A stretch of DNA of 64,000 bases from Candidatus Thorarchaeota archaeon. Lineage in GTDB: Archaea > Asgardarchaeota > Thorarchaeia > Thorarchaeales > Thorarchaeaceae. The notes beneath the pieces were generated by a model. It ran no database searches. It saw only the letters and a list, made by a program, of their open reading frames with translations, and had not been told where the DNA came from. Below are positions 4,138-41,324 of this stretch, one piece after another; position 1 is the first letter of the stretch, and each line of letters opens with the position of its first letter. The DNA is taken from NCBI GenBank assembly GCA_019057475.1, contig DXJO01000041.1, positions 7,284 through 71,283 on the forward strand, written 5' to 3'. A program made the position numbers and the translations under genes.

Positions 4138-4863
4138 CTAGCGTCGACATGCAATCACAAGGAAGTACTCTGACTGGCCATTATTGGATCCTGAGAGGAC
4201 TCTCGTTATCTCGATATTCCTGAAATGCGTAGATAGAAGCTGCTCTATCATGTTTCTGGTGAATGCATAGGGCTGCGATTCTGGGATAGGTTCTCGTGGA
4301 CCTCGTATTATGCCAATGTATTCGCCCTTTGGTTTTAGAATCTCAGTCAGGCGCAGGACATAGTGGGCACGCTGTGTGGGCGGCAGCGTCTGAAGAAACG
4401 ATCGCTCAAAGATATAATCAAACTCTCCTTCCGTGGGACCGTTCCTCAACACGTCCCCGACAATCAGGTCGACATCAAGCCCCAGTTTCTCGATGCATTT
4501 ACGAAGCATAGATACTGCCCTTTTTGAGATGTCCAATACAGTTACTCTGAATCCATTAGAAGCGAGATACACCGCATCATGGCCCAAACCGGGACCTGGT
4601 TCGAATACTCTCCCGGGCACTATTCGCTTGGTTTTTACTAGGTTGACCAGAGCGGGGTGCGGTCGGGATATATCCCAAGGAACATCGCCCTTGCTGAAAG
4701 CGACATCGTTGGCTGTCCTTGCCATGCATGGATGATGCGCCATACCATCCTGTCCAAGCATAGTTTGGATCCATCCTCTCACTTCTAGAAGAGGGTTATC
4801 ATCAGTGGAAGGTTCATTGCACAATATGCATCTTGGTCGTTCATCGCCCATCAAGAATGACAT
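4138..4863 (-). CDS. SAM-dependent methyltransferase, thiopurine/thiol S-methyltransferase (TPMT/TehB)-like, with N-terminal Cys/His cluster
   Basis: Motif I 'VFEPGPGLGHDAVYLA' and motif II 'VLDIS'. Overall TPMT-like layout. N-terminal 'CILCNEP...HHPC' suggests a zinc ribbon. Confidence 0.6.
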   Translation of the reverse strand: MSFLMGDERPRCILCNEPSTDDNPLLEVRGWIQTMLGQDGMAHHPCMARTANDVAFSKGDVPWDISRPHPALVNLVKTKRIVPGRVFEPGPGLGHDAVYLASNGFRVTVLDISKRAVSMLRKCIEKLGLDVDLIVGDVLRNGPTEGEFDYIFERSFLQTLPPTQRAHYVLRLTEILKPKGEYIGIIRGPREPIPESQPYAFTRNMIEQLLSTHFRNIEITRVLSGSNNGQSEYFLVIACRR

Positions 4864-4885
4864 CTCTCTGTGCTCGGCACAGACA

Positions 4886-5148
4886 CATCCCAGTTCTTGT
4901 GTGTTTGGCTCGATTAAAGGCGAATCTAGAACATGCGCAAGTACTCAGGCGAGTTTAATATCCGAGCGTCCATAGGAATGTGGATATGCTTGCCTCCAAT
5001 ACCATAGAATTTCAAGGACCCAGTGTCATACACGAAGCCACAGGTCCCTGATGCTTGTTCTCCATTTACATTTTCAACCCAGTAGTTCCTGACTATCTCT
5101 GCTGTGCCAATCGTGTCGTACCATTGAAGACCATATGTGATTAATCCA
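4886..5148. repeat. Copy A of a ~265-bp imperfect direct repeat (second copy at 9628-9889), ~90% identical
   Basis: Direct alignment: 'catcccagttcttgtgtgtttgg...cgtaccattgaagaccatatgtgattaatcc' occurs at both positions with scattered substitutions. Confidence 0.9.
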
Positions 5149-5160
5149 CCCTGTCCATCA
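4926..5160 (-). pseudogene. Truncated duplicate of the 3' end (last ~80 codons) of the membrane-protein gene at 9656..11071
   Basis: Minus-strand translation gives '...GGLITYGLQWYDTIGTAEIVRNYWVENVNGEQASGTCGFVYDTGSLKFYGIGGKHIHIPMDARILNSPEYLRMF*', about 90% identical to the C-terminus of the 471-aa protein. No start codon and an upstream stop, so it is a remnant. Confidence 0.8.
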
Positions 5161-5536
5161 GGACTTCTACGAGGTATGTCCGTGAACGGAATCCGTATTG
5201 GTCAATTTCGATTTCGTCAATCTCATTTAGATAAAGAAAAATGGACCATCTTTTCGAAAAAAAATAACATCAAAGGATTCATTAACTAGTGTAGTGACTA
5301 CTCTATTGAGATAACATAGACCATGGGTGGTGACTGCAGGATTGAACTCTGATAGTCCTTTACCGATATCCAAGCAAAGGAGTCCTGCATATCCAATCCT
5401 AACTAGGATTCGAGCAAGTCAAGTGTTAGCTATTGATTCTACATCTAATCCAATCAATACCCTTTGGAATCGCAATTGGAGTGGAAGAGTAAAGACTCGC
5501 AATCCACAAAATCACATAACTAGGAGTGTTTCATCT

Positions 5537-8500
5537 ATGTGCAAGAGAATTTGGAAAAGGGATTTTGCAGCAGCGTTCATCCTTCTGACGTTCATTCTGG
5601 GTCTGTCGATGTTTATATCACTAGCAGTAATGCAGGATGACATTGCGCATCTATCTATGCCTGTTGTCCACAGAGGGCCGACAAGGAAGATGACAACCGC
5701 CTATATCACCCATGGTCCAATTGTGATAGACAGTGATAATAACTTTACAGCCACAGCGTTGGCTAAAGGATGGCCTGGTCTTGGTTCGCCTGGAGATCCC
5801 TTCATCATAAGGAATTATTCGATCGACCTTGGGGGTGCGATTGGTCATTGCATCAACATCAGCAACACTCGTGTCAGCTTCATCATCAGAAACTGCAGTC
5901 TAACTGGTGCCAATGTATCGACATTTCTTGTAGATAGTGCTGGCGTCTTTCTGAAAAATGTCACCAATGGTGAAATAGTCAATAACATCTGCACGAATGA
6001 CTGGTATGCAATCTATCTAACGAACTCTACTGGAAACACTATTGCCAACAACACCTGCTCATACAATCTCGACAGGGGGATATGTTTGGAACAGGCTTCC
6101 AATTTCAACATTATTAAGAACAACACCTGCAACAGCAATACCGAATATGGCATCTCCCTCTATCAAAGTGACTATAACGAGATGATCAACAACACCTGCT
6201 CCGATAACATAAACGATGGCATCTATGTCTACTATTCGGATTACACTCTCCTTATCAACAACACCTGCTACTCGAACACTCAGCATGGTATCAACCTGTA
6301 TTTCGCCTGTTACTATAGCGAGATAATCAACAACACCTGCTCCGATAACACCTATGGAATCTATGTCTACGCTTCACGGTACAATCTCTTTACCAACAAC
6401 ACCTGCAAGACAAATGATTATGGTATTGTCTTTGACTTTCATTCGGAATATAACGAGGTAATCAACAACACCTGCTCCGATAACATAGAAGATGGCATCC
6501 TTGTTTTCGAAGGTTCAGATTACAATCTCCTTGCCAATAACACCTGCTCCGATAACAGCAAAGGTATCACTGTTTCGAGGGGTCCTTTTGTCGGAAGTTC
6601 ATCCCACAATCTCCTTGTCAACAACATCTGCGAGAGAAATGGTGTTGGTATTCGCCTCTTAGGTGATTCATCTGATGATAGGTCACTATATAACGAGATA
6701 ATCAATAACACCTGCTCCGATAACATAGACGATGGCATCTATGTCATATGGTCGAATTACACTCTTATTGCTAACAACACCTGCGAGAGAAATAGTGATG
6801 GTATTGTCCTTTGGCTTGGCTCGGACCATAACGATATAATCAACAACACCTGCTCCGTTAACAGCTTGTATGGAATCTATGTCTACGCTTCACGGTACAA
6901 TCTCCTTGCCAACAACAACTGCTCCGATAACAGCTATGGCATCTCTCTCGACGGTTCCTACAATCTCTTATTCAATAACACCTGCTCCGATAACGACTAT
7001 GGCATCGTAGTCTGCGGTTCCTACAATCGTTTATTCAATAACACCTGCTCCGATAACGACATGCATGATCCCGATTCAGGCTTTGGCATCTTACTTTATT
7101 CTATTTCAAATTACAATCTCCTTGCCAACAACACCTGTGAGAGAAATGATCATGGTATTGGTCTCGTATCATATTTATATTCTCCAGATCATAACGAGAT
7201 AATCAATAACACCTGCTCCGATAACATGAAAGGTGGCATCTATCTCGACGGTCCAAGTTACAATCTCCTTGCCAATAACACATGTGAGAGAAATGACTAT
7301 GGCATTTACTTCGGATCTCTTTCAGAATTTAACGAGATAATCAACAACACCTGCTCCGATAACACCTATGGCATCTATCTCGACGGTGCGGATCACAATC
7401 TCCTTGCCAATAACACATGTGAGAGAAATGATTATGGTATTGGCCTTGTATCTTCCTTAACTTGGTCAAATGATAACACACTCGTGAACAACACCTGTTC
7501 ATGGAATACATTTTGTGGAATACTCCTCAACGTTAATACTCACCATAACGTGGTCACTAACTGTACCTGCAATTACAACGGTGAATTCGGAATCATGCTG
7601 GCTGGGTCAGATCATAACAACATCACCAGCAATACCTGTAATGGGAATCTTGAAGGCATTCATATCAGTGACTCGGATTCGAACATCATCGCGAACAACA
7701 CAGTCTGCCACAACACTGGTCCAGGAATACGCCTACTCTCAACCTCGTTGAGCAACACCGTCCAATGGAATATTCTCATGAACAACTCTTACAATGTCTG
7801 GAACGACCACTCAAGCAATGTGATTGACTACAACTACTACTCAGACTATGATGGTTACGATAACGACGGAAATGGCATAGGTGATGTTCCTTATCTGCAC
7901 GATGGCTCAGCAAACTCCGAAGACACTCACCCGTATATGTTTCCTGGTGGTTATCTGTACATCACTTGGACCGAGGCGATTACAGATCAATTTACTGAGT
8001 ATATGGAATCTTGGCAATATGATATAGATGTGATCGTGAAGACAAATGTTTACTTATGGTGGATCAACGACACAGCCCACTTCTCAGTCGATCCCACTGG
8101 ACTAATCACCAACAAGACCCCTTTGGTGGTTGGCACCTATGGAGTTATGATATATGTCAATGACACTGAAGGTCATGTGCTGCGAGGCGCATTCACCCTG
8201 GTAGTGTATCCTGCAGGGGCTCCAGAGTGGGTTCAAGCACCCACTGACCAGACTATAGAGTTTGGTGCCACCTTCCAGTACGACCTTGATGCGGTTGCTC
8301 CTTCAGGAATTGACTTCTGGCAGATTAATGATACTGCCAGGTTTCATATTGATCAGACTGGATTGATAACAAATGCCACGGTTCTGATTGTGGGTACATA
8401 CCATCTTGAAGTCATAGTCAATGACACTTTGGGTCAAGTGCTGATAGGAGCATTCACCCTGGTGGTGGATCCTGCAGCGCCTCCAGAGTGGGTTCAAGAA

Positions 8501-9445
8501 CCCACTGACAAGACCATAGAATTCGGTGCAACCTTCCAGTATGACCTTGATGTGGTTGATACTTCAGAAATTGACCTCTGGCTGATTAACGATACTGTCA
8601 GGTTTCATATTGATCAGACTGGATTGATAACAAATGCGACGGTTTTGATGGTAGGTGTATACTATCTTGAAGTCATGGTCAATGACACTTTGGGGCATGT
8701 GCAGACTGCTGAGTTTGCTGTGATAATACAGGACACTACAGCCCCAACTTGGGATGTTACACCAACAAACCAAGTAATCGAATATGGTAGTCTGTTTAGT
8801 TATGACCTTGATGCATCAGATCTGTCAAGCATCCATCACTGGTGGTTGAATGACACCACAAGCTTCGCTATTGATAGCAATGGTGTTATTACAAATGTGA
8901 CTACTTTGGCAATTGGTGTTCATGGTTTACAGGTCTGGGTGAATGACACTATTGGTAACATCCAAACTGCAGCATTTTCAATCTCTGTTGAAGATACAAC
9001 CGATCCAGTGATTACAGCGATTCCAGAAGACATCGAATTTGAAGAAGGTGAGACTGGATACAGTATCACTTGGCAGTTCCATGATCTTGATCCATCAACT
9101 TACACAATCTATCTGAATGGAGAAATCCTACTAACAGGTCAATGGAATTCCAGCAGTGAAGTATTCATCGTTGTTGTTGATGGACTAGCTACAGGATCGC
9201 ATAACTTCACCATAGTCGTGACCGACGGTTCTGGAAATCCTGCTATGGATGAAGTCACAGTAACAGTGACAGCGGTAACAACGACTCCTACAACAACCAC
9301 CACAACTACAACGACTACCTTATCGACGGAACCTGATGGCACGTTAATGGGTATAATGCTGACTGGCGTTGGTGGGGCGGCCATCGCCATAACCATTGTA
9401 ATAATAAGCCTCAAAAAGCGAAGAAGACAACCAAGACAAGAATAG
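5537..9445 (+). CDS. Giant secreted/surface protein: signal/TM, ~20 parallel beta-helix (PbH1-type) repeats, 5 tandem Ig/cadherin-like domains, Thr-rich stalk, C-terminal TM anchor with basic tail
   Basis: Track ORF starts at GTG 5327. ATG 5537 ('MCKRIWKRDFAAAFILLTFILGLSMFISLAV') gives a proper signal/TM start. The block 'NNTCSDN...GIY' recurs ~20 times with ~23-aa period. Five ~87-aa repeats 'PEWVQxPTDxTIEFGATFQYDLD...'. A 'TTTPTTTTTTTTTT' linker, then 'LMGIMLTGVGGAAIAITIVIISLKKRRRQPRQE'. Many N-x-S/T sequons. Confidence 0.75.
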   Translation: MCKRIWKRDFAAAFILLTFILGLSMFISLAVMQDDIAHLSMPVVHRGPTRKMTTAYITHGPIVIDSDNNFTATALAKGWPGLGSPGDPFIIRNYSIDLGGAIGHCINISNTRVSFIIRNCSLTGANVSTFLVDSAGVFLKNVTNGEIVNNICTNDWYAIYLTNSTGNTIANNTCSYNLDRGICLEQASNFNIIKNNTCNSNTEYGISLYQSDYNEMINNTCSDNINDGIYVYYSDYTLLINNTCYSNTQHGINLYFACYYSEIINNTCSDNTYGIYVYASRYNLFTNNTCKTNDYGIVFDFHSEYNEVINNTCSDNIEDGILVFEGSDYNLLANNTCSDNSKGITVSRGPFVGSSSHNLLVNNICERNGVGIRLLGDSSDDRSLYNEIINNTCSDNIDDGIYVIWSNYTLIANNTCERNSDGIVLWLGSDHNDIINNTCSVNSLYGIYVYASRYNLLANNNCSDNSYGISLDGSYNLLFNNTCSDNDYGIVVCGSYNRLFNNTCSDNDMHDPDSGFGILLYSISNYNLLANNTCERNDHGIGLVSYLYSPDHNEIINNTCSDNMKGGIYLDGPSYNLLANNTCERNDYGIYFGSLSEFNEIINNTCSDNTYGIYLDGADHNLLANNTCERNDYGIGLVSSLTWSNDNTLVNNTCSWNTFCGILLNVNTHHNVVTNCTCNYNGEFGIMLAGSDHNNITSNTCNGNLEGIHISDSDSNIIANNTVCHNTGPGIRLLSTSLSNTVQWNILMNNSYNVWNDHSSNVIDYNYYSDYDGYDNDGNGIGDVPYLHDGSANSEDTHPYMFPGGYLYITWTEAITDQFTEYMESWQYDIDVIVKTNVYLWWINDTAHFSVDPTGLITNKTPLVVGTYGVMIYVNDTEGHVLRGAFTLVVYPAGAPEWVQAPTDQTIEFGATFQYDLDAVAPSGIDFWQINDTARFHIDQTGLITNATVLIVGTYHLEVIVNDTLGQVLIGAFTLVVDPAAPPEWVQEPTDKTIEFGATFQYDLDVVDTSEIDLWLINDTVRFHIDQTGLITNATVLMVGVYYLEVMVNDTLGHVQTAEFAVIIQDTTAPTWDVTPTNQVIEYGSLFSYDLDASDLSSIHHWWLNDTTSFAIDSNGVITNVTTLAIGVHGLQVWVNDTIGNIQTAAFSISVEDTTDPVITAIPEDIEFEEGETGYSITWQFHDLDPSTYTIYLNGEILLTGQWNSSSEVFIVVVDGLATGSHNFTIVVTDGSGNPAMDEVTVTVTAVTTTPTTTTTTTTTTLSTEPDGTLMGIMLTGVGGAAIAITIVIISLKKRRRQPRQE
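6050..7500 (+). repeat. Nucleotide-level periodic repeats (~69-72 bp) encoding the beta-helix array inside the surface-protein gene
   Basis: The string 'atcaacaacacctgctccgataac' and close variants recur many times. Confidence 0.8.
7960..9250 (+). repeat. Five tandem ~261-bp in-frame repeats (Ig-like domains) inside the surface-protein gene
   Basis: 'ccagagtgggttcaag' recurs at 8222 and 8483. Adjacent units are ~85-90% identical at nucleotide level. Confidence 0.8.
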
Positions 9446-9627
9446 CCCAAGTGGTGGTTAGTATTAGACAGGAAATTCGCGGTCTAATCGTTGCCTAGTT
9501 TCTTCTGCTTCTTTGGAGGAAGTAGTGACACATAGTCGATAGAAAAGTTCAGAAAGGACCTTATCGTTAGATAATAGATCCCTATGAATAACCAGATACT
9601 CTTTCATCACTCGACCAGGCCTAGACT

Positions 9628-9889
9628 CATCCCAGTTCTTGTGTGTTTGGTTCGATTAAAGGCAAATCCAAAACATGTGCAAGTACTCAGGCGAGTTCAA
9701 CATGCGAGCGTCCATGGGAATGTGGATATGATTACCTCCAAAGCCATAGAATTCCAAGGACCCAGTGTCATACACGAAGCCACAGGTCCCTGATGCTTGT
9801 TCCCCATTTACATTGTCAACCCAGTAGCTCCTAACGATCTCTGCTGTGCCAATCGTGTCGTACCATTGAAGACCATATGTGATTAATCC
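9628..9889. repeat. Copy B of the ~265-bp direct repeat; this copy is the functional 3' end of gene 9656..11071
   Basis: See copy A. The repeat covers the last ~78 codons plus ~28 nt of downstream sequence. Confidence 0.9.
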
Positions 9890-11071
9890 CTGATCACCGA
9901 GCGACATTATCACATCAATTGCTGTAATCACTCCAGGTTGAAACAGGTCATCCCGGAGATTGTGAGCAGTAACCGCCACGTCGTAGAAGTCCAGTGCGAT
10001 ATATGGAGTGGTTATCTCGACATGAGGGATAATCACGATGCCGCCGTTGGTTTCCAGCCGCGTGACCTCTTCCTCGAAGGCTTGATGAATTCTCTCAAGT
10101 TGATTTCTGTCGATCAGTACGAACTGGAGTGTGGTCCCTTCTTTCCACGGGTGGTGGTCCATTCTGAAGACATTGTTTTCTAACCAGCCTCCGCTGTAGT
10201 AAGATCGATACCACCAGTTGGTCATGCCATTCATACTGTCAATAACATGGGTATTCATGGACTCATTGAAATGATACTCTAGGCTCACCAAACCTCGGTT
10301 AGAGAGATCTACAAGAATATCGAACATAGAGAAATGGCCATCAGTGAACAAGTCAGGACGAGTTGTTTCAATAGCGGACCAATTAAATCCATGCTTAACT
10401 CCGTCGACACTCGCATGTGCGGTGGTAACTCCCACAGGCGGAGGAAGAGTTGTGTTTCCGGGACTAATGACCGTTTCATTGCTGCGCGGCGGTACAGCCA
10501 GTGGAATGTCAATTTGAGGTGCATTGAGAAATACAACGGTCACTAACAGCGACACTGTTAACCCGATTATGAAAAGATTCGCGATTTGTTTGGAGACTCC
10601 ACGGCGTATCGAGAGGAACTTCAGTCCCACTCCCACATGGAGAATAATCAAGACTGCGAGAAAAGCGTCATAGATTCTGTGCCACCCAAAGGGGATTGTT
10701 TCGCTGAAGACAGTCGCAAACCAGATGTATCCGTTGAGCCCAGGAATGATAACGAGAAAGGCAAAGATTACAATTAGCCAAGCAGACACCCTTTGAACAA
10801 GTCGTAGAAGATGAATTGATGTTCCCTTCTTATTCTGAACCCCATCAAGCAGTCTTCTCCACGTTAGCTTGAAGTGCACGAGGGTAATTGCCACATGGAT
10901 AATTAGGAATCCAATGAAGAAGACCTCGAGTATTCTATGTATCGAGGAGATGAGATAGATATCAACTAACCATCCGCGGGCAAGACTGTAACCGGTGGCT
11001 ATTATCGCCAGAGAGAATATCGCGAGTAGCCATGCGGTGTAACGATGCACTCTTACCCTTGTGGATGACAT
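9656..11071 (-). CDS. Membrane protein with an N-terminal ~5-TM domain carrying paired histidines (cytochrome-b/DUF4405-like) and a large extracytoplasmic C-terminal domain; function unknown
   Basis: 471 aa. TM helices with 'HRILEVFFIGFLIIHVAITLVHF' and 'ILHVGVGLKF'. The C-terminal ~250 aa is hydrophilic with several N-x-S/T sequons. Confidence 0.4.
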   Translation of the reverse strand: MSSTRVRVHRYTAWLLAIFSLAIIATGYSLARGWLVDIYLISSIHRILEVFFIGFLIIHVAITLVHFKLTWRRLLDGVQNKKGTSIHLLRLVQRVSAWLIVIFAFLVIIPGLNGYIWFATVFSETIPFGWHRIYDAFLAVLIILHVGVGLKFLSIRRGVSKQIANLFIIGLTVSLLVTVVFLNAPQIDIPLAVPPRSNETVISPGNTTLPPPVGVTTAHASVDGVKHGFNWSAIETTRPDLFTDGHFSMFDILVDLSNRGLVSLEYHFNESMNTHVIDSMNGMTNWWYRSYYSGGWLENNVFRMDHHPWKEGTTLQFVLIDRNQLERIHQAFEEEVTRLETNGGIVIIPHVEITTPYIALDFYDVAVTAHNLRDDLFQPGVITAIDVIMSLGDQGLITYGLQWYDTIGTAEIVRSYWVDNVNGEQASGTCGFVYDTGSLEFYGFGGNHIHIPMDARMLNSPEYLHMFWICL

Positions 11072-11216
11072 ATTCTTTGCAAATGCACTAAGTTACAAAT
11101 ATTAACCATTAGGTATGGCTGTTGCGCTATCTGTAACCAAACGAGATCGTGCATACGACTAGAAAAGTGTCCGGGGAGGACAACAGGTGTCCTCCCGAAC
11201 GTGTTCATGATGTGGC

Positions 11217-12482
11217 TTATGCGATTGCTGCGTCTCCTGCTTCGCCGGTTTTTATTGTCATAGTCAGGAAGAATGCTACAACAAAGAAGACGATTGACAA
11301 CGGATAGAGTATTCCGATTCCGAGTAAATCGAAAAGAACACCTGACACAACCGGACCGCTAATCGCAGCACCCATACTGGCGGCATAGTACAGTCCTGTC
11401 CCCGCACCGACACGAGCCTGACCCAGATGTTCCCAGAGCATCACGATACTATTGACGTTTATCAATGCCCATCCGACGCCAGTTATTACAAGAACGCCGA
11501 GTATGGTCCAGTAGTCTGTGATGACCCAGAGAAGGCCTAAGGATACTATCATTATGATAAGGCCGGCCAGTATCGTGTTTTTCCGCCCAAACTTGCCTGC
11601 AATGAAGCCCGCTGGGACTGCAAAAACAACGAATGACAGAGCAATACCGTTTAGAAGAAATGAGGCATCCGCGACTGGGAAGCCAAGTACTTCATTGCCG
11701 TACTTCGTGAACCACGTTTCTAATGCGTTCCACCCGAAGAACCAGAAGAAGATTGCACCCATGATAGCCGCAGCAGACTTGTCCTCTGAGAAGGACACCT
11801 GCTGGAATGCCTTGATAATACCAATCTCTCTTTTGGCGTCAACTGGCGGGACTGAAGGTTCCTTGACAATAATATAGAGAATTAGTACTGCAACAATCAT
11901 AATCACTGATGTCGTCAGAAACGCCAATATGGGCCCTGACTGCACGGCGGTTACACCCAACATCGTGCCCAGAGAGGGGTCATTGATTTTGTAGATTTGC
12001 GATGCTATTGCAAATGCATAGATCGCACCAATTCCGCCCATCAGATTGATGACTCCATTTGCCTTCGAACGATTCTCACTGGAAATAAGGTCAGGCATCA
12101 GTGCCACTACAGGAGCCCGATAAAACGCCATGGCGACATTGAAAATTGTTAACATCGCAAGCATGAACCAGAACCCAAAGACTGCCCAGCCATAGGCTGC
12201 CAGTGAGAAGAAGAGTGCGGCAATCGGCGTGCCTATCATTATGTAAGGCATTCGCCTGCCCCATTTTGTCCGTGTCTTGTCTGACCGCGCCCCAATGTAG
12301 GGCTGAAGGAACAGAGCAAGAAGATTATCCACGACCATGATTGCACCAATGATTGTGTTCTGTAGATCACCAACGATGAAATCTGGTAGAAATGCAGCTG
12401 GTAGATAGCTGTTGTAGACGCTCCAACTGACACTCGTTGTAAAGAAGCCAAGACCAATCGCGAAGATGTGTAGCCATCGCAT
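11217..12482 (-). CDS. MFS transporter, glycoside-pentoside-hexuronide (GPH)/cation symporter-like
   Basis: ~12 TM helices. 'GARSDKTRTKWGRRMPYI' matches the GPH-family loop motif. Start moved to internal ATG (MRWLHIF...) because the track's 5' extension is non-membrane and overlaps a divergent ORF. Confidence 0.65.
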   Translation of the reverse strand: MRWLHIFAIGLGFFTTSVSWSVYNSYLPAAFLPDFIVGDLQNTIIGAIMVVDNLLALFLQPYIGARSDKTRTKWGRRMPYIMIGTPIAALFFSLAAYGWAVFGFWFMLAMLTIFNVAMAFYRAPVVALMPDLISSENRSKANGVINLMGGIGAIYAFAIASQIYKINDPSLGTMLGVTAVQSGPILAFLTTSVIMIVAVLILYIIVKEPSVPPVDAKREIGIIKAFQQVSFSEDKSAAAIMGAIFFWFFGWNALETWFTKYGNEVLGFPVADASFLLNGIALSFVVFAVPAGFIAGKFGRKNTILAGLIIMIVSLGLLWVITDYWTILGVLVITGVGWALINVNSIVMLWEHLGQARVGAGTGLYYAASMGAAISGPVVSGVLFDLLGIGILYPLSIVFFVVAFFLTMTIKTGEAGDAAIA

Positions 12483-12667
12483 CTTAGTCGGAGCTCCAAC
12501 TTCCAGAGCAGATGTATCGTCCGTACCATCAGTAGATGTCAAATCATTCACTCCTTTTCGATATGCGAATTGTGAACTCAGGAGGTGATGGTAAGCCGCT
12601 AAAGGAGTGCTGGACACTATAGCACACGATTCATATCTTACATATCGTAGGTCATACCGGTGCATCA

Positions 12668-12940
12668 ATGAATATACAGTACATTTCACAGCCTAGAGTG
12701 AAGGAACTCCTGCTACATCTCAAGTGGGGCGATAGGTTCGAGGAGGAAATGAGAGAGGCATTAAAGGCCATTCGCGAGTCGGAGTTGGACTTCGAGCAAA
12801 TTAAGCGAGAGCTGACAGAATCGGGACTAGTACTGCAACTCCGCGGAGAAGGAGGGAATCCGTATCTGGCGCTGACGGATATGGGTCAGGCAATCGCAGA
12901 CCTGCTTCATGAGATTGAGTTCATCTTGACGCCAAGATGA
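12668..12940 (+). CDS. Small hypothetical protein (90 aa), possibly a helical DNA-binding protein
   Basis: ORF sits divergent to the transporter. The charged helical sequence has no diagnostic motif. Confidence 0.25.
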   Translation: MNIQYISQPRVKELLLHLKWGDRFEEEMREALKAIRESELDFEQIKRELTESGLVLQLRGEGGNPYLALTDMGQAIADLLHEIEFILTPR

Positions 12941-13428
12941 CTACAAAGAATCAGAGTGAAGCTCTCGCATGGCGTCCCACGCGAAAACTTCCTCACGTGT
13001 GATCGTAGAATGAGCTTGGGTGCGCCGGGGACTATCTCCCTTATCTTCGGCACAGGACTGAACGGAATCGTTGTCGGATACCATTCTAATCCCCCTCTAT
13101 CGGTTGTAGAGATATGCGTGTGCGACTGCATTTGTCGAAACAGGCTTCTTCGGGAGCCCCTTCCTCTCGTTCTCACCTATTTTTGCGAGTGCCAGTTCTA
13201 TCACCTCCGATAGATGTATGCGTGGTATAGTGCTCCGGTCGACAGGACCTTTGCAACCTTTGCGTTCTGCGTTCCAGATACGTTCCTTGTGTTCTTTGAT
13301 AGTGCCATTGTGTTTCACCGTTCGCTAAAGGGTGTGTAAAACAAACCATTCAGCCATCTATGGTATAGTCATAAACCCATATAAGGTTTGTGTCGCAAAC
13401 CAATCTATGCAAAACGCGTGATGGATAA

Positions 13429-24186: not shown

Positions 24187-27100
24187 TTACCACCGTTTAC
24201 CTTTATGATGATTAAATGATATATTGAGTCTGAAACCCGGCTTGTAGGATTTTAGGAACCGGGTGTATGATCGTCTGTACCGTGCTATGACCAACAATGC
24301 GATGATGCCCTCCACAGAGATTACTAGAATCCACATGATTAACATCATCCCCGCAGGAATCTCACCAGGGCCAGATATATTGACCGTGTACTGGCCCGAG
24401 CGAACATCCGTAGTTTCGGATGACGTAATTATGATGCGGTACGTGAAAGCGCCCTCCTCTGCTGGAACCGTCGCTGTGACCGTGAATGTGCCGTCCGGGC
24501 CAGTCGTGGTCGGATTCGTTGTGGTTGTGAAATTAACTACAATCTCGATGTTGCGGTTGGCTATCGGATCCCCATTTTCGTCGATGAGTAGTCCATTGAA
24601 TGTGAAATTCTGTCCAGGAGCAACCATTGTGAGAGTGCCAGTCATGTCGAAACTAACGTTGTCTGTAAAGATATGCATCCTTTCAGATGTTTCTGCAGAA
24701 GAGGCTAGTACGCCTGTAGTGCCGGAGTACTCAACCCGTAAAGCGTAATAATCAGACGTGTCCCAAGAAACCGGCAGAGTGAATCTGAATCTGTGTTCAC
24801 TGCTGGTATTGATTGCTGCGACGCCTATTGGGGTACTCTCGAGAAGGGTGTCAAGATAGATGTTGACTACTGCCCCCGGTATTGCATTTCCAAGGTAGTC
24901 AGCAAGACTGATGATGAATGAATAGCTCTCTCCGGGCATAATATCTGGGGGGGTTGAAGGGTCAAAGCGCACCTGTAGGGCCGACTGCGTAAACAATGTG
25001 ATGATCCATGTGTCCACATTGCTGGTGACATCATAGTATCCGGGCACATTTGCGAGACTGAGTACATAATTTCCGAAAGAATAAGCGGAAGTATTAGTCC
25101 ATGTTCTGGAAAAATTGCCGTCCGATTGTGAAGTAGTTGTGAGAATACGACTGCCATCAACCAAGATGTCTAATGTAATTCCGGGAGCTGGCCCACCTCC
25201 ATTGGAAACATAGCCAGTCACTATCAAGGATTCACCAATGTTCAGGGCGGTAACTAACTGAACGTTCATGTGCAGTTCGACCGAGTCCCAAATCTCCAGA
25301 CTTTCGGGAGCGGTCTGAGCATTCTCGATTGCAGGCGTAGGTGATGAGAATAGAGCATAAATGTTGCTTGGGCCAAGCGGATATATCCAAGGTATGGAGT
25401 AGTTAACTGAGAAGCTGCCCCCACCGACAGTAGTCGCATTCCTGACCGAGACCCCAGCAAGCATAATATCTACAACATAACCCACCATGGGAGTACCATT
25501 GGCAAATGTCAGGGTGCCAGAAATAGTGACTGAAGCCCCCCTATACACTAAGCTCGGAATTGCATTCGCAGTGAGATTGACAGGAATCTGCTGAACCTGA
25601 ACTGGAATGATAAGCGATTGACCGGAACTGATGTAGGAGTCTGCCGGTGTACAGTTGGCCCACACCTGTAGTATCCCCACGGGTACCGCTTCGGTGATTT
25701 GGACCACAACCCAGAACCGTCCGCTGCCATCAGTGACTAATGACTCTATGAAGAAGTCAACGAAATCAATGCTATGGCGACCCCAGATATCAACGGCGGC
25801 AAAGGCATATGGAGTGCCATTGTCAAGGCTGAGAACACCTGAGATGTTCAAGTTCTCCGAGATGTAGACAGGATTTGGTGTTGCATCAAACGGCACCCAG
25901 ACCAAAGTATAGGCGTCAATATCAATCGGGATTGGTATTGCTGTATGATTGTCTATCCAGTTCACACTCGACAGATATCGCACAGTGACATCGTAGCTGC
26001 CCGGAGTCGTTGATTGAGGAATCGTCCAAGAGCAAGTGAAGGATCCGTCAGATGCGGTGGTGTCATTGTCAACCACTCCCACGCCCACAACAAGCATCTC
26101 TACAATGACGCCTTCAAAGGGCACACTCGACCCGTACTCCAGTGTTCCTGTAACCACCACGGTTTCGGTGAGATGGAAGACTGTGATTCCACCAGTACTA
26201 AATCCAATGAGTGTCGCCCATCGTTGAAGGGTTAATGATTCGTGAGTGGATTCAACACCCTCAATGAGCTGAGTGCCATTATAGATCCCGTAGACCTGAA
26301 CAGAGAGATCCGTGTAGTCATGCATGCCAGAGTAAGGATGACTCGCCTGACCACTCCCATCGGTAGTCACGTTCGTAATCCATGAAATCCCAGTTGAGTT
26401 TTCCCACCATAGCGAAACCACTGCACCGCTAATATTAGCACTATTGTGAGAGAAGTAGAGATGAACAGTGATTGTGACAGTTTCGTTCAGATAGACTGAA
26501 TTGACAAAGGAAACGTCCAGAGTCACAAGGTAGAGCGACAGAGTTACCGTTTCAGTTGCTGATGTGTCACTCTCCACGTACGGGTTCAGGCTTGTGTAGC
26601 TTGCCCACATCTGAATATCTTCTGCATCATCACTGATAGAGAGGTTGTAGAGGAAGCTATAGCCGCCCGTGCTGTTAGTTGTCTTCTGAAACGTGAATGT
26701 TCCAGAGCTGTTTACATAATATATAGTGATGATCTCCCCAGCAAGGGGTGTGCCATCCACAAGAGTCAGATTGCCGGAGAACACGATGACCTCGTCGAGG
26801 AAGTGAAAATCTGAGTCGGGGGTGCCAGTTAGTGTTACCTGGTACAACTGAACCGTTAGAGAAGGCGTAAGAGTTGCTGAAGCGTCGCTCTGAGTTGCTA
26901 TAGTTGAGTTCCACTCAACCCATACTGCGACCGTGCTGGTGGAGTCGCTCAGTGTTAGATTGTAGTAGAAATCGTACCAGCCTGTGGAGTTTGTTGTGGC
27001 GTTGAACAGGTATTGTGTCCCATTGTCCCAGTAGATTTGAATGGTCATGTCTACAAATGGAGACCCATCCGAACCGTTTTGGAGCCTACCCCAGATGTGC

Positions 27101-30006
27101 ACGACCTCATCCAAGTGGTAGTGTGTAGCATTGGAATAGACTGAGACGATGCTGCTTAGCCGCTCGATTGTGACCGAAACCGTTGAAGAGTTTGCACCTG
27201 CAAACGGAGATATTTCCACAAACTGAGCCCATACAGTCACACTTTCATCTAGATGACTGAATGGCACCTCATGGTCATAGACATACCCACCTGTTGCGTT
27301 TGAAATTACATTCGTTATGTTGAAGGTGCCCGATGAGTTGGTCCACCATATCTTCACGGAAGCGCCAGCAAGCAGCGCTGGGTATTCAGGGACTATTACA
27401 AGTCCCTCGATTCTCGTGGTTTCGAGTGGATGTAAGGTTGTAGGATTGACTGCTATGGTAAGTACAATGTCCCAGTTCTTCACGGTAATTGTCATGCTTG
27501 AGGAGGTCGCATTTAGGTAGTTGGGATCTGAGGACCCCTCCCACTTCGACCAATAGGTTACAGTCCCCATGTCGCTTGGTAGTGCGGTATACTCCAACTC
27601 ATAATATCCAGTTGCGTTGGTGAAAACCGTGCCAATCAAGTGCGGTCCCGTCGAGTTCTGCCAATAGATATTGACCCACTTGTTTGCCAAGCCACTACTG
27701 TTGATTGGGTCATAGAGCTGTCCGAATATGGTGATGTTTTCCCAAACGTGAAGGCTTTCTGCGGGTGGTTGCGGTACTGAGTCAATGGTTAGCTCCGCTC
27801 CCCGAATGGTAACTTGGATAGGCACAGTTTCGCTCCAGTTGCCTAGGACATGATCTATCGTGGAACTCCAATTCGCTCGAGCATTATATGTCCCCGGCGC
27901 GTGTGCAGCAGGGATTGTATAGGGGGCATTGAAGCCACCAGTACTGTTTGTAGTGGCGCTAAACAGGAAATTTCCGTCAAAGAAGAGGCCAATATCCTCT
28001 CCGATAAGGGGTGTCCCATCCAGAAGTTCGACCTGACCATCGTACGTTATTGATTCCCCTCGAAAGACGGGAGATGGAATAACATTCAGTGTGAATGAGA
28101 TCTTGCCCCACACATCAACGGTCGAGTTGTCAATAGATTGTGCCGGAAATAGATGGGGAACTCCCTGTCGGTACTCCCCTGCGTAAAAGGACCATACCTC
28201 GTGCATCCCCGTGCCCATTCTCGGGTCAGCGGCGTCCACATAGATGTCTAGCTGGTAGGTGCCGTCAGCCTGTATCGTTGCATTTCCAATCCAAGTTTCA
28301 TCCCACATAATCTGGATCTGGTCGTTGATGAGTGTCGTACCGTTCACTGGTTCGCCTTGCACAGTCATCAATCCATGCGCATGAACTGTGTCTGTCCACA
28401 CAGAAGTGTAATTGTCCCAACCGAGTTTCAGATTCACATCGATAGTTTCACTGAAACAGAACCTGCCTTCGCCGAGCGGCTCTGGCTGAGCCACCGCAAA
28501 GACGTAGGTGAAGTTGGTGACGCTGAAACTTCCCTGGTCGTACGTTGCGCTTATGTTGTGAAGACCCAGGTCGGCATCCGGTGGAAATGCATAGGTAAAG
28601 TTGGCCAGCGGCCATAGAGTCCCCTGTACTATCGTAGCAGTGCCAAGATGAAGAGACGCAGTTTCGTCACGGAACCGTATCGTCGCACCCTCGCCTGTAG
28701 GCAGGCCCTGAAGCAGCAAAGCAGCACTGAGATCGAATGGGTCCTCGAGTAACGCCCAGGGCTCAGCCAAGTTAGGCCAAACAAGAACCTGAAGATCTCC
28801 TTCTCCAACATTCTCAGGGATATCCCCCCCACCCATATCATCCGGCAGTGGGATTGGAACTACCTGTATCCACTCGCCACCCCCACCCGACATCGGTATG
28901 AAGACCTCAGCCCAGAACATCATGTGACGTACTCGCACCACACTATGTGTTCCTTCTTGATCTCCCACAGCATAGCCTATTGTCATTCTAGCGGGAATGT
29001 CAAGATAGCGCATGTAGACACAGTAGGCTGTGGCAAAGTCCATTGGTAAACCACCACCCCTCTCGATGAACCAATCCGTAACCTCTCGGCCTGGCTCGGG
29101 GCGCTCCTGGTAGTTATCGAGCGTCAGCTCGAATGTAGTGCGGAAGTAAGCATCGACCAACACGGCCATTTCATAGGCATTGTCAGCCGCTCCTAGGAAC
29201 TGAGAAGCATTGTCTTGTACGCGTTGTGAGAGCGGTTCAACATCCTCGAGCGCAGTGTAGGTTGTGTAGATATCTTCCGGGGCGAAATTTCCCGGCATCG
29301 CATTGCTCGCGACGTTGGTTAGGTCTTGTTGCCTGTATGTTACCTCGTAACTGATCAGCACATACTCGTCGCTCTCGCCTTCTATAAGGGGGTTGAACAG
29401 AAGTGTGTTGTAATCATCTGTTTCAAGGGTGTACTGCAGAAGTAAGCCATTCGGATGGCTTTGAAACGAGTCTTGTATGACTTGGATTTGCGGGAACAAT
29501 GCAGGCAGCTCAACACTTCCTGTTGCCCCTCCTGCGGAAACATTGATGAAAATCGTGTAAATCGTGTTGCCTTGGGTTACCGCCTGTGCTCTGGTAATGA
29601 GCTCTGTGCTGTCAAGGGGTCCTGTATCCAATTGTGTCTTGGCCCATCCAGAGCCATCATAGCTATCATAGGCGGTACTGCGCCATAACTGAGGTGGATT
29701 ATACGGGTCTACGATGAAGAGCACGTTCTCAAGCTGTTCAAGGAGATTGTCGGGAAGGGTCATGTTAAGTGGCAGGTCTTGATAGGTCACGTTCTCGAAC
29801 CAGTTACTCGTCCAGTCATTAAAGTTAACGTTGATTTCCCATTCGTCAGGAGGATATGGCTCGTGTGGATTTTCCAACCTCACCACACCTGCTTGGATGT
29901 TGAGAACGCTCCAAGTGGCCCAAATTATGGTGGCAACTAGGAATAGTGAGCTGATGAGAGTTATTGGGCTTGCCTTGCGGCGAACACCGGTTTTTGTGGC
30001 ACTCAA
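24187..30006 (-). CDS. Giant (1939 aa) surface protein with N-terminal TM, transglutaminase-like cysteine-protease core and >12 Ig/CarboxypepD_reg-like beta-sandwich repeats, C-terminal TM anchor
   Basis: TGase-like core 'DFATAYCVYMRYLDIPARMTIGY...VRHMMFWAEVFIPMSGGGGEWIQVVP' (Cys/His/Asp). Recurrent 'NATGYY', 'TNSTGGY' and 'DGTP' repeat signatures. Ends '...GMMLIMWILVISVEGIIALLVIARYRRSY...'. Confidence 0.7.
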   Translation of the reverse strand: MSATKTGVRRKASPITLISSLFLVATIIWATWSVLNIQAGVVRLENPHEPYPPDEWEINVNFNDWTSNWFENVTYQDLPLNMTLPDNLLEQLENVLFIVDPYNPPQLWRSTAYDSYDGSGWAKTQLDTGPLDSTELITRAQAVTQGNTIYTIFINVSAGGATGSVELPALFPQIQVIQDSFQSHPNGLLLQYTLETDDYNTLLFNPLIEGESDEYVLISYEVTYRQQDLTNVASNAMPGNFAPEDIYTTYTALEDVEPLSQRVQDNASQFLGAADNAYEMAVLVDAYFRTTFELTLDNYQERPEPGREVTDWFIERGGGLPMDFATAYCVYMRYLDIPARMTIGYAVGDQEGTHSVVRVRHMMFWAEVFIPMSGGGGEWIQVVPIPLPDDMGGGDIPENVGEGDLQVLVWPNLAEPWALLEDPFDLSAALLLQGLPTGEGATIRFRDETASLHLGTATIVQGTLWPLANFTYAFPPDADLGLHNISATYDQGSFSVTNFTYVFAVAQPEPLGEGRFCFSETIDVNLKLGWDNYTSVWTDTVHAHGLMTVQGEPVNGTTLINDQIQIMWDETWIGNATIQADGTYQLDIYVDAADPRMGTGMHEVWSFYAGEYRQGVPHLFPAQSIDNSTVDVWGKISFTLNVIPSPVFRGESITYDGQVELLDGTPLIGEDIGLFFDGNFLFSATTNSTGGFNAPYTIPAAHAPGTYNARANWSSTIDHVLGNWSETVPIQVTIRGAELTIDSVPQPPAESLHVWENITIFGQLYDPINSSGLANKWVNIYWQNSTGPHLIGTVFTNATGYYELEYTALPSDMGTVTYWSKWEGSSDPNYLNATSSSMTITVKNWDIVLTIAVNPTTLHPLETTRIEGLVIVPEYPALLAGASVKIWWTNSSGTFNITNVISNATGGYVYDHEVPFSHLDESVTVWAQFVEISPFAGANSSTVSVTIERLSSIVSVYSNATHYHLDEVVHIWGRLQNGSDGSPFVDMTIQIYWDNGTQYLFNATTNSTGWYDFYYNLTLSDSTSTVAVWVEWNSTIATQSDASATLTPSLTVQLYQVTLTGTPDSDFHFLDEVIVFSGNLTLVDGTPLAGEIITIYYVNSSGTFTFQKTTNSTGGYSFLYNLSISDDAEDIQMWASYTSLNPYVESDTSATETVTLSLYLVTLDVSFVNSVYLNETVTITVHLYFSHNSANISGAVVSLWWENSTGISWITNVTTDGSGQASHPYSGMHDYTDLSVQVYGIYNGTQLIEGVESTHESLTLQRWATLIGFSTGGITVFHLTETVVVTGTLEYGSSVPFEGVIVEMLVVGVGVVDNDTTASDGSFTCSWTIPQSTTPGSYDVTVRYLSSVNWIDNHTAIPIPIDIDAYTLVWVPFDATPNPVYISENLNISGVLSLDNGTPYAFAAVDIWGRHSIDFVDFFIESLVTDGSGRFWVVVQITEAVPVGILQVWANCTPADSYISSGQSLIIPVQVQQIPVNLTANAIPSLVYRGASVTISGTLTFANGTPMVGYVVDIMLAGVSVRNATTVGGGSFSVNYSIPWIYPLGPSNIYALFSSPTPAIENAQTAPESLEIWDSVELHMNVQLVTALNIGESLIVTGYVSNGGGPAPGITLDILVDGSRILTTTSQSDGNFSRTWTNTSAYSFGNYVLSLANVPGYYDVTSNVDTWIITLFTQSALQVRFDPSTPPDIMPGESYSFIISLADYLGNAIPGAVVNIYLDTLLESTPIGVAAINTSSEHRFRFTLPVSWDTSDYYALRVEYSGTTGVLASSAETSERMHIFTDNVSFDMTGTLTMVAPGQNFTFNGLLIDENGDPIANRNIEIVVNFTTTTNPTTTGPDGTFTVTATVPAEEGAFTYRIIITSSETTDVRSGQYTVNISGPGEIPAGMMLIMWILVISVEGIIALLVIARYRRSYTRFLKSYKPGFRLNISFNHHKGKRW

Positions 30007-41247: not shown

Positions 41248-41324
41248 GGGCCGGTGATCTAGTTGGCTATGATGCCGCCTTCACACGGCGGAAATCGGGT
41301 GTTCGAGTCACCCCCGGCCCACCA
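41248..41324 (+). tRNA. tRNA-Val (anticodon CAC), CCA encoded
   Basis: Acceptor stem GGGCCGG/CCGGCCC. Anticodon stem ccgcc/ggcgg with loop 'ttCACac'. T-arm 'gggtgttcgagtcaccc'. Ends 'A-CCA'. Confidence 0.75.

Follow-up and report, generated by a model that had tools for sequence, protein, structure and literature searches.

The 64-kb window considered here, that is, the whole stretch of DNA that was analyzed, is part of a 386-kb JGI metagenome contig (3300032107 Ga0326314_1000005) of a Candidatus Thorarchaeota archaeon; it contains a gene for a giant surface protein that is enclosed by two long direct repeats, copy A and copy B, and that lies between the gene for a 471-aa membrane protein and the gene for a TPMT-like S-adenosylmethionine (SAM) methyltransferase (Table 1). 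The two repeat copies (272 nt, 92% identity, spacing 4742 nt) share a gap-free core of 262 nt, homologous to related genomes as well, in which 243 of 262 positions (92.7%) are identical between A and B; they differ at 19–20 positions, and their longest exact match covers 60 nt. The pair is the sole long dispersed repeat of the window, with all remaining repeats located within the giant gene; it is real, and a chance match at such length is effectively impossible. An earlier interpretation of the same DNA, termed the sequence-only reading in the following, had already reported this repeat; its presence stands, with one edge shifted by ~10 nt and the identity of ~90% corrected to 92%.

The same reading had taken copy B as the genuine 3′ end of the 471-aa gene and copy A as a remnant with a premature stop just upstream of the methyltransferase gene, and most of this holds. 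Copy B provides the last 77 codons and the stop of the working gene. Copy A is a 5′-truncated pseudogene fragment with 78 codon positions, which reads GLITYGLQWYDTIGTAEIVRNYWVENVNGEQASGTCGFVYDTGSLKFYGIGGKHIHIPMDARILNSPEYLRMF followed by a stop in the 471-aa frame and retains a recognizable C-terminus; the premature stop exists (TGG to TAG), but it is located four codons ahead of the normal stop and costs only four residues, and the main defect of copy A is the loss of the first 393 codons. The gap between the end of copy A and the start of the TPMT-like gene at 4863 measures 13–23 nt; copy A supplies the DNA immediately upstream of this gene, and it is collinear with the TPMT flank in all relatives. 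Annotators should flag 4876–5147 as a pseudogene remnant.

Table 1. Features of the window locus (window coordinates) and deletion alleles at related loci (window-equivalent coordinates, designated by L-numbers).
Feature	Position	Strand	Remarks
TPMT-like SAM methyltransferase gene	4138..4863	(-)	Pfam TPMT 1e-18; conserved right-hand neighbor of the site
Repeat copy A	4876..5147	(-)	5′-truncated pseudogene fragment of the 471-aa gene; in-frame TAG 4926-4928
22-nt element CCAAACACACAAGAACTGGGAT	4887..4908	(-)	upstream of the TPMT start, in copy A
Insert-specific DNA	5148..9623	(.)	4476 bp, made up of the giant gene with 389 nt before and 178 nt after it
Giant surface-protein gene	5537..9445	(+)	1302 aa; start as called in the source record
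Repeat copy B	9618..9889	(-)	3′ end of the working 471-aa gene: final 77 codons and stop (9656-9889), 32-38 nt downstream
22-nt element, second identical copy	9629..9650	(-)	in copy B; directed into the insert, antisense to the giant gene’s 3′ end
471-aa membrane protein gene	9656..11071	(-)	cytochrome-b/DUF4405-like N-terminus
MFS transporter gene	11217..12689	(-)	with the 471-aa gene, the block deleted in several relatives
Deletion allele L015/L023	11146->9734		deletion of the 471-aa gene; keeps 26 codons
Deletion allele L016/L017			deletion of the MFS and 471-aa genes; keeps ~13 codons
Deletion allele L018-L021	12615->9706		keeps 17 codons
Deletion allele L025	12615->9681		keeps 8 codons
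Deletion allele L022	12525->9993 and 9825->9703		two deletions

Between the repeats, the giant gene is the only open reading frame (ORF) with homologues, which bears out the earlier statement that these 4.7 kb hold nothing but the surface protein; the small ORFs match no family, and the maximal ORF of the giant gene would encode 1372 aa. The predicted protein matches the Pfam families NosD (7e-81) and Beta_helix (1e-72), and TIGR03804 with 14 repeats; its layout comprises a hydrophobic anchor at the N-terminus, NosD/parallel beta-helix repeats, tandem repeats of Ig-like type, a linker rich in Thr and, at the C-terminus, a transmembrane segment and a basic tail. Transmembrane segments are predicted at residues 9–33 and 1270–1293, and 46 N-x-S/T sequons were counted, compared to 25 ± 4 in shuffled sequences. 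A surface glycoprotein is a fair reading of the predicted product, because the NosD/beta-helix repeats, the anchor, the transmembrane segment, the basic tail and the excess of sequons occur together. Two kinds of internal repetition were observed within the gene, a 261-nt tandem duplication of one Ig-like domain unit at 8156–8677 (87% identity) and at least 19 diverged copies of a 63–72-nt beta-helix coil unit around AACAACACCTGC (NNTC) at 6000–7650.

Base composition was considered as a sign of foreign origin, as the sequence-only reading had recommended, and set aside. The GC content of the insert is low (GC1 0.43), and this is explained by the amino acid composition of an Asn/Ile/Thr-rich protein; GC at third codon positions (GC3, 0.48) is within one standard deviation of the genes of the window, and codon usage is ordinary. 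The comparison thus speaks neither for nor against foreign DNA. Among 5.8 billion proteins, the best matches of the giant protein were the protein itself and then a homologue with 58% amino acid identity in a different genomic context, with neighbors that differ from those in the window. The two assemblies of this homologue (L009 and L010) have the same start, exactly 159 nt ahead of the gene, which hints at a repeat or strain break at that point, and their homology to the window begins at 5427, 110 nt upstream of the called start of the giant gene; with a contig that begins so close to the gene, this homologue has no bearing on the allele from which the insert may have come.

The homologues assign the contig to Thorarchaeota, and the related contigs of this group have ~89–92% nucleotide identity to it. 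The 471-aa protein belongs to a family that is widespread in Thorarchaeota and other Asgard archaea; orthologues with 89–92% identity were found on several independent contigs, and TPMT-like orthologues (84–90% identity) are present in all related loci. In at least three lineages, represented by L001–L005 (the metagenome-assembled genome GCA_054182255.1 and four metagenome contigs), by L006/L007 and by L013, the 471-aa gene directly abuts the TPMT-like gene. These are the empty sites that the sequence-only reading had named as its check. By blastn, window positions 13000 to 9624 align to L001 8069–11442, and window positions 5147 to 3000 align to L001 11177–13324; 266 bp of L001 (11177–11442) are single there and double in the window, where they match both 5147–4882 and 9889–9624. 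The 4476 bp from 5148 to 9623 have no blastn counterpart in L001–L007 and L013. A self-contained segment of 4.5 kb with one surface-glycoprotein gene has been inserted into the short spacer between the 471-aa and TPMT-like genes, with ~270 bp of target sequence on both sides; as a description, the term inserted cassette that the sequence-only reading had used is apt, since comparison with related genomes shows the segment to be an insertion.

The arrangement with the insert was recovered from a single source: exact-protein look-ups returned the source contig only, and scans of metagenomes and genomes gave only empty-site or deletion alleles. Its occurrence in one assembly would be accounted for by an assembly artifact, in which the assembler joined co-occurring strains or loci via their shared 3′-end sequence and thereby created a false duplication; in support of this possibility, the sampled environments hold many related lineages at ~90% identity, and the related contig L014 breaks off after 32 nt of the repeat region. 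Yet the copies differ at 19–20 positions, at every 60 nt or less, and with a longest exact match of 60 nt the pair is therefore not a collapsed repeat; both junctions are located at the ends of the homology and not inside it, and each junction therefore exists in some real molecule; finally, both junctions flank the same gene, and the 386-kb contig is collinear with relatives on both sides. Weighing these points, an artifact is improbable. The terminus of L014 (WTCK01000063.1; 90% identical, ending at window-equivalent 9857) is the de Bruijn break point that would be expected if a second copy existed there, and low coverage is an equally possible cause.

A search with the TPMT-like protein recovered further alleles from relatives, in which the 471-aa gene has been deleted (Table 1). 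Five distinct breakpoint sets remove this gene, with or without the adjacent MFS gene (window-equivalent 9681–12659); the deletion alleles keep the last 8–26 codons of the 471-aa gene together with an invariant 22-nt element, and all alleles keep at least 76 nt upstream of the TPMT ATG. Judging from these alleles, the 471-aa/MFS pair is dispensable, and the locus is a hotspot of rearrangement. Structural variation was also observed elsewhere in the window. A block of ~4.5 kb that occurs in relatives (L016 5837–10385, L018 4892–9454, L001 13509–17966) is absent from the window at ~1335–1338, between the M42 peptidase and Hjc-like genes; it contains a 326-aa gene, an ABC ATPase, an FtsX-like permease, DUF4418 and small ORFs, and the overlap at the window junction is 4 nt or less. 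In L018–L021, the M42 peptidase gene is missing as well. Besides the giant gene, another very large ORF (1939 aa) is located at 24187–30006 on the reverse strand, 15 kb from the giant gene.

The polarity of the change follows from the repeat copies themselves. In the 262-nt core, 11 sites unite A and B with L001 to the exclusion of L007 and L013, and a clade of A, B and the L001 group, apart from L006, L007 and L013, receives 99.8% bootstrap support in neighbor-joining analysis. With both copies inside the L001 clade, the duplication is derived and arose after the split from the L006/L007/L013 lineage; the empty site of that lineage is therefore ancestral, and repeated loss of the insert is unlikely. 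The opposite scenario, an ancestral insert that was repeatedly lost in relatives by pop-out recombination between the repeats, draws on the deletion-prone nature of the locus and on the suitability of ~270-bp direct repeats as deletion substrates. It is nevertheless very improbable: according to the clade just described, L006, L007 and L013 never had the duplication; L022, which lacks the insert, retains part of the 471-aa gene across the repeat boundary; and the changes private to copy A are found in no relative’s remnant.

What all surviving alleles have in common is the DNA upstream of the TPMT-like gene. In the window, the 22-nt element CCAAACACACAAGAACTGGGAT has just two occurrences; across all relatives, with every deletion allele included, it is unchanged or almost so, despite synonymous divergence (dS) of 0.2–0.8 between the lineages; the strictness of this conservation could mean a regulatory site. 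Within the conserved stretch of at least 76 nt, a TATA-like sequence, CCTTTAATCG, overlaps the stop codon of the 471-aa gene. The stretch with CCTTTAATCG and CCAAACACACAAGAACTGGGAT would represent the promoter and 5′ untranslated region (UTR) of the TPMT-like gene. The insert is located ~32 nt past the 471-aa stop, just downstream of the 22-nt element and ~40 nt before the TPMT start; an insertion alone would cut the TPMT-like gene off from the element, and copy A would restore it. The persistence of copy A, a dead fragment, could then be attributed to the putative TPMT promoter that it holds. A spacer that carries the promoter of the neighboring gene would limit which rearrangements survive; whether by insertion or by deletion, every allele retains the spacer.

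A 48-aa ORF at the B-side junction (9464–9610, reverse strand) was considered as a candidate gene and rejected. It belongs to no Pfam family, and among 1.8 billion representative proteins it obtained one match, limited to residues 15–38, to a 709-aa protein; without a family or a convincing homologue it is probably not a gene. The ORF starts 20 nt after the GGGATG of the 22-nt element in copy B, and the TPMT-like gene starts at a similar distance (22 nt) from the element in copy A. It marks the path that any transcript from the duplicated promoter would take, antisense to the end of the giant gene.

No machinery for mobility is encoded at the locus. Neither the insert nor the called genes within ±10 kb include an integrase or transposase (Pfam, NCBIfam and source annotation), in agreement with the sequence-only reading, and the 4476 bp are taken up by one gene and its flanks, which therefore leaves no room for decayed integrase genes. 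Terminal inverted or direct repeats at the insert ends do not exceed chance expectation, with the best terminal inverted repeat scoring below the shuffle mean, and a repeat search of the window gave no inverted repeats. A short exact attachment (att) core at both ends was not found either; the repeat is long and imperfect, and its sole perfectly conserved core, the 22-nt element, touches one junction and is 240 nt away from the other. The site has no tRNA gene (the only one in the window is at 41248, 31 kb off); Rfam gave no match in 4700–10000 at E ≤ 1; the repeat has no match in PLSDB; the viral contigs of IMG/VR contain no relative of the giant gene; and no second copy of the cassette was found at other sites or in other genomes. 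Features of transposons, insertion sequences or casposons are likewise missing at the insert, which has no transposase or casposase, and the duplication of ~270 bp is not of the short, fixed-length kind.

These results bear on a site-specific integrative cassette, for which the ~270-bp repeat or its 22-nt core would serve as att site and which would have been mobilized in trans or be the last remnant of a larger element. The layout does fit such a model, with a direct repeat that includes a gene 3′ end and with empty sites in relatives; moreover, the B-side junction directly follows the perfectly conserved 22-nt element, which is found in both copies. Against it stand the missing recombinase in or near the insert, the lack of space for decayed genes, the absence of the cassette elsewhere, and the 240 nt that separate the A-side junction from the 22-nt element. 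In addition, the described Asgard elements differ, as they use tyrosine integrases with an 11-bp motif (PMC11529989) or tRNA sites (PMC8813620). Since every deletion allele preserves the 22-nt element, it is better explained as part of the TPMT promoter or 5′ UTR than as an att site. A cassette of this kind retains a small probability, and the central proposal of the sequence-only reading, that the locus is the footprint of an integrative element targeting gene 3′ ends, is not upheld: the empty-site layout alone matches such an element, and the locus is better described as a recombinase-free, ordinary gene gain in a flexible genome. More doubtful still, and less probable than an assembly artifact, is a version in which the ~270-bp repeat with its 22-nt core is the long homology of an integrase-less single-gene cassette, mobilized in trans or moved by host recombination. 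Were it true, a cassette popping in and out beside the TPMT promoter would constitute a reversible on/off switch for an Asgard surface glycoprotein, and the promoter in copy B would produce antisense transcripts over the giant gene’s 3′ end.

The divergence between the two copies bears on their origin. Polarized with the relatives, copy A has 6–8 private changes (3 synonymous and 5 non-synonymous, including the stop), and copy B has 3–4, all of them synonymous (4 synonymous and 0 non-synonymous; Fisher p = 0.08 in comparison to A). Copy A, with its neutral-looking changes, is decaying, and copy B is under selection. By the Nei–Gojobori method, A and B are separated by a dS of 0.21 (9 synonymous differences; omega 0.22); for comparison, flanking-gene dS is 0.19–0.23 to the nearest relatives (the L015 group) and 0.31–0.41 to L001. 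Among sites that are informative for the trio of A, B and L001, four group B with L001, two group A with L001 and one groups A with B; the corresponding bootstrap support is 67–78% for B with L001 and 10–18% for A with B. At three sites that differ between A and B and where neither state is private, the remnants of near relatives that overlap the repeat match B and not A. A scan for mosaic tracts found the discordant sites of copy A interspersed, with no clean tracts apart from a possible 16-nt patch, and a breakpoint scan of the 471-aa gene, with sites scored as L001-like or L013-like, gave an interleaved pattern such as a star-like tree produces.

The strongest competing explanation is a duplicative insertion in situ, in which a staggered break or a template switch, similar to microhomology-mediated break-induced replication (MMBIR) or fork stalling and template switching (FoSTeS), captured 4.5 kb and re-entered ~270 nt behind the break; the copies would have been identical at birth, after which A diverged neutrally and B remained under selection. 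The structure is exactly that of target, insert and target, and imperfect microhomology exists at both edges. Counted at synonymous sites, the nearest neighbor of each copy is nominally the other copy (9 differences, compared to 14–15 to L001), copy A’s own changes look neutral and copy B’s constrained, and the GC3 and codon usage of the giant gene resemble those of the host. However, A and B share one exclusive derived site, whereas L001 alone has eight private sites, and the low bootstrap value for A with B points in the same direction. At 4–5 sites, A has the state of L006, L007 and L013 while B, L001 and the near relatives have another; by a rough estimate, ~0.3 such sites would be expected from chance convergence. 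Finally, a dS of 0.21 requires an event of roughly the age of the split from the nearest relatives, none of which has the insert. On balance, an origin in situ is rather unlikely, although it is the main rival.

The data lean instead towards different histories for copies A and B, and the explanation that we favor, at about even odds, is homology-anchored illegitimate recombination, independent of a recombinase, between two structural alleles of an unstable locus within related Thorarchaeota. One of these alleles would have had the intact 471-aa gene, and in the other the giant gene would have abutted a truncated remnant of the 471-aa gene or been located just downstream of the intact gene. 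Incoming DNA from a related Thorarchaeote would have been fixed at one end by homologous recombination in the shared flank and joined illegitimately at the other; the outcome would be a resident copy and a donor copy of the 3′ end, arranged as a direct repeat that is not an integrase-made att site. A donor allele with the order giant gene, remnant and TPMT-like gene is plausible because alleles with truncated remnants are common in this group. Beyond both repeat edges, imperfect similarity was found (7 of 10 positions, and 8 of 11 with a 3-nt indel), which would fit microhomology joins. The donor allele and the choice of the foreign copy are what we infer in this scheme. The sequence-only reading had argued that the copy with the replacement role came from a different genome; this is mildly favored, as A and B do not appear as sister sequences and their dS of 0.21 equals that between lineages, but the outlier, if there is one, is the remnant A and not the working copy B.

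As a caveat, several observations weigh against recombination between two alleles. The insert arrangement is known from a single assembly, and the postulated donor type, with the giant gene and a truncated remnant but no intact gene, was not found in the metagenome and genome scans. The 262-nt repeat offers only seven informative sites, and a trichotomy is not rejected (chi-square p ~0.4); the rough interval around dS between A and B is wide (0.09–0.47), and an old in-situ duplication at the base of the lineage would also fit. Lineage relationships shift from bin to bin along the flanks, with the consequence that resident and donor cannot be assigned confidently. The promoter role of the duplicated element, finally, is based on its conservation.

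Several known processes and systems resemble the locus in part. A Campbell-type single crossover and MMBIR both yield a target–insert–target structure with a long duplicated target and require no dedicated recombinase; a Campbell event presupposes a circular intermediate with the homology on it, and MMBIR copies are identical at birth. Neither intermediate is visible at the window locus. Archaeal elements with tyrosine recombinases share the insertion between direct repeats that contain a host gene’s end, and an empty site in relatives. The integrated mobile genetic elements of Asgard archaea have tyrosine integrases with an 11-bp motif (PMC11529989); in contrast to these, the window locus has no integrase, short exact att core, tRNA target or second copy, and its repeat is ~270 bp long with 92% identity. 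Aloposons have tandem genes for proteins of 3,000–6,000 aa, tRNA integration, and four upstream genes including a MinD/ParA-like ATPase (PMC8813620); the insert described here differs from them in its one gene of 1302 aa, without tandem giants, accessory genes or a ParA-like gene, and the only tRNA of the window is the distant one at 41248.

The nearest analogue is C-terminal displacement in the effector–immunity arrays of Rhs, contact-dependent inhibition (CDI) and type VI secretion systems (T6SS; PMC5361080). For orphan 3′ fragments in T6SS/Rhs arrays, homology-facilitated illegitimate recombination was proposed (Kirchberger et al., 2017, PMC5361080; citing de Vries and Wackernagel, 2002; Jackson et al., 2009). 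As in these arrays, DNA would have entered beside a conserved gene with a homologous anchor at one end, an illegitimate join at the other and no integrase, and a 5′-truncated 3′ fragment, copy A, is found beyond the insert as a direct repeat. Unlike the arrays, the window locus represents a single event in an Asgard host; its cargo is a surface gene in opposite orientation, without a C-terminal tip or immunity gene, and anchor and donor are part of the proposed scheme. The cargo recalls the flexible genomic islands that encode variation of the cell surface within genomes that are syntenic elsewhere (Lopez-Perez et al., 2014, PMC4033161): a strain-specific, glycosylation-rich surface gene is located between conserved, syntenic core genes, and the flanks are mosaic between lineages, which suggests recombination. 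The island here consists of a single gene, and two features are specific to this locus, namely the duplication on either side and the large number of independent deletion alleles. Comparable to such islands, the window locus is a well-resolved yet ordinary instance of flexible-genome turnover that opens no new question, and it provides studies of Asgard flexible genomes with a worked, base-resolved example of surface-gene gain without mobile-element machinery.

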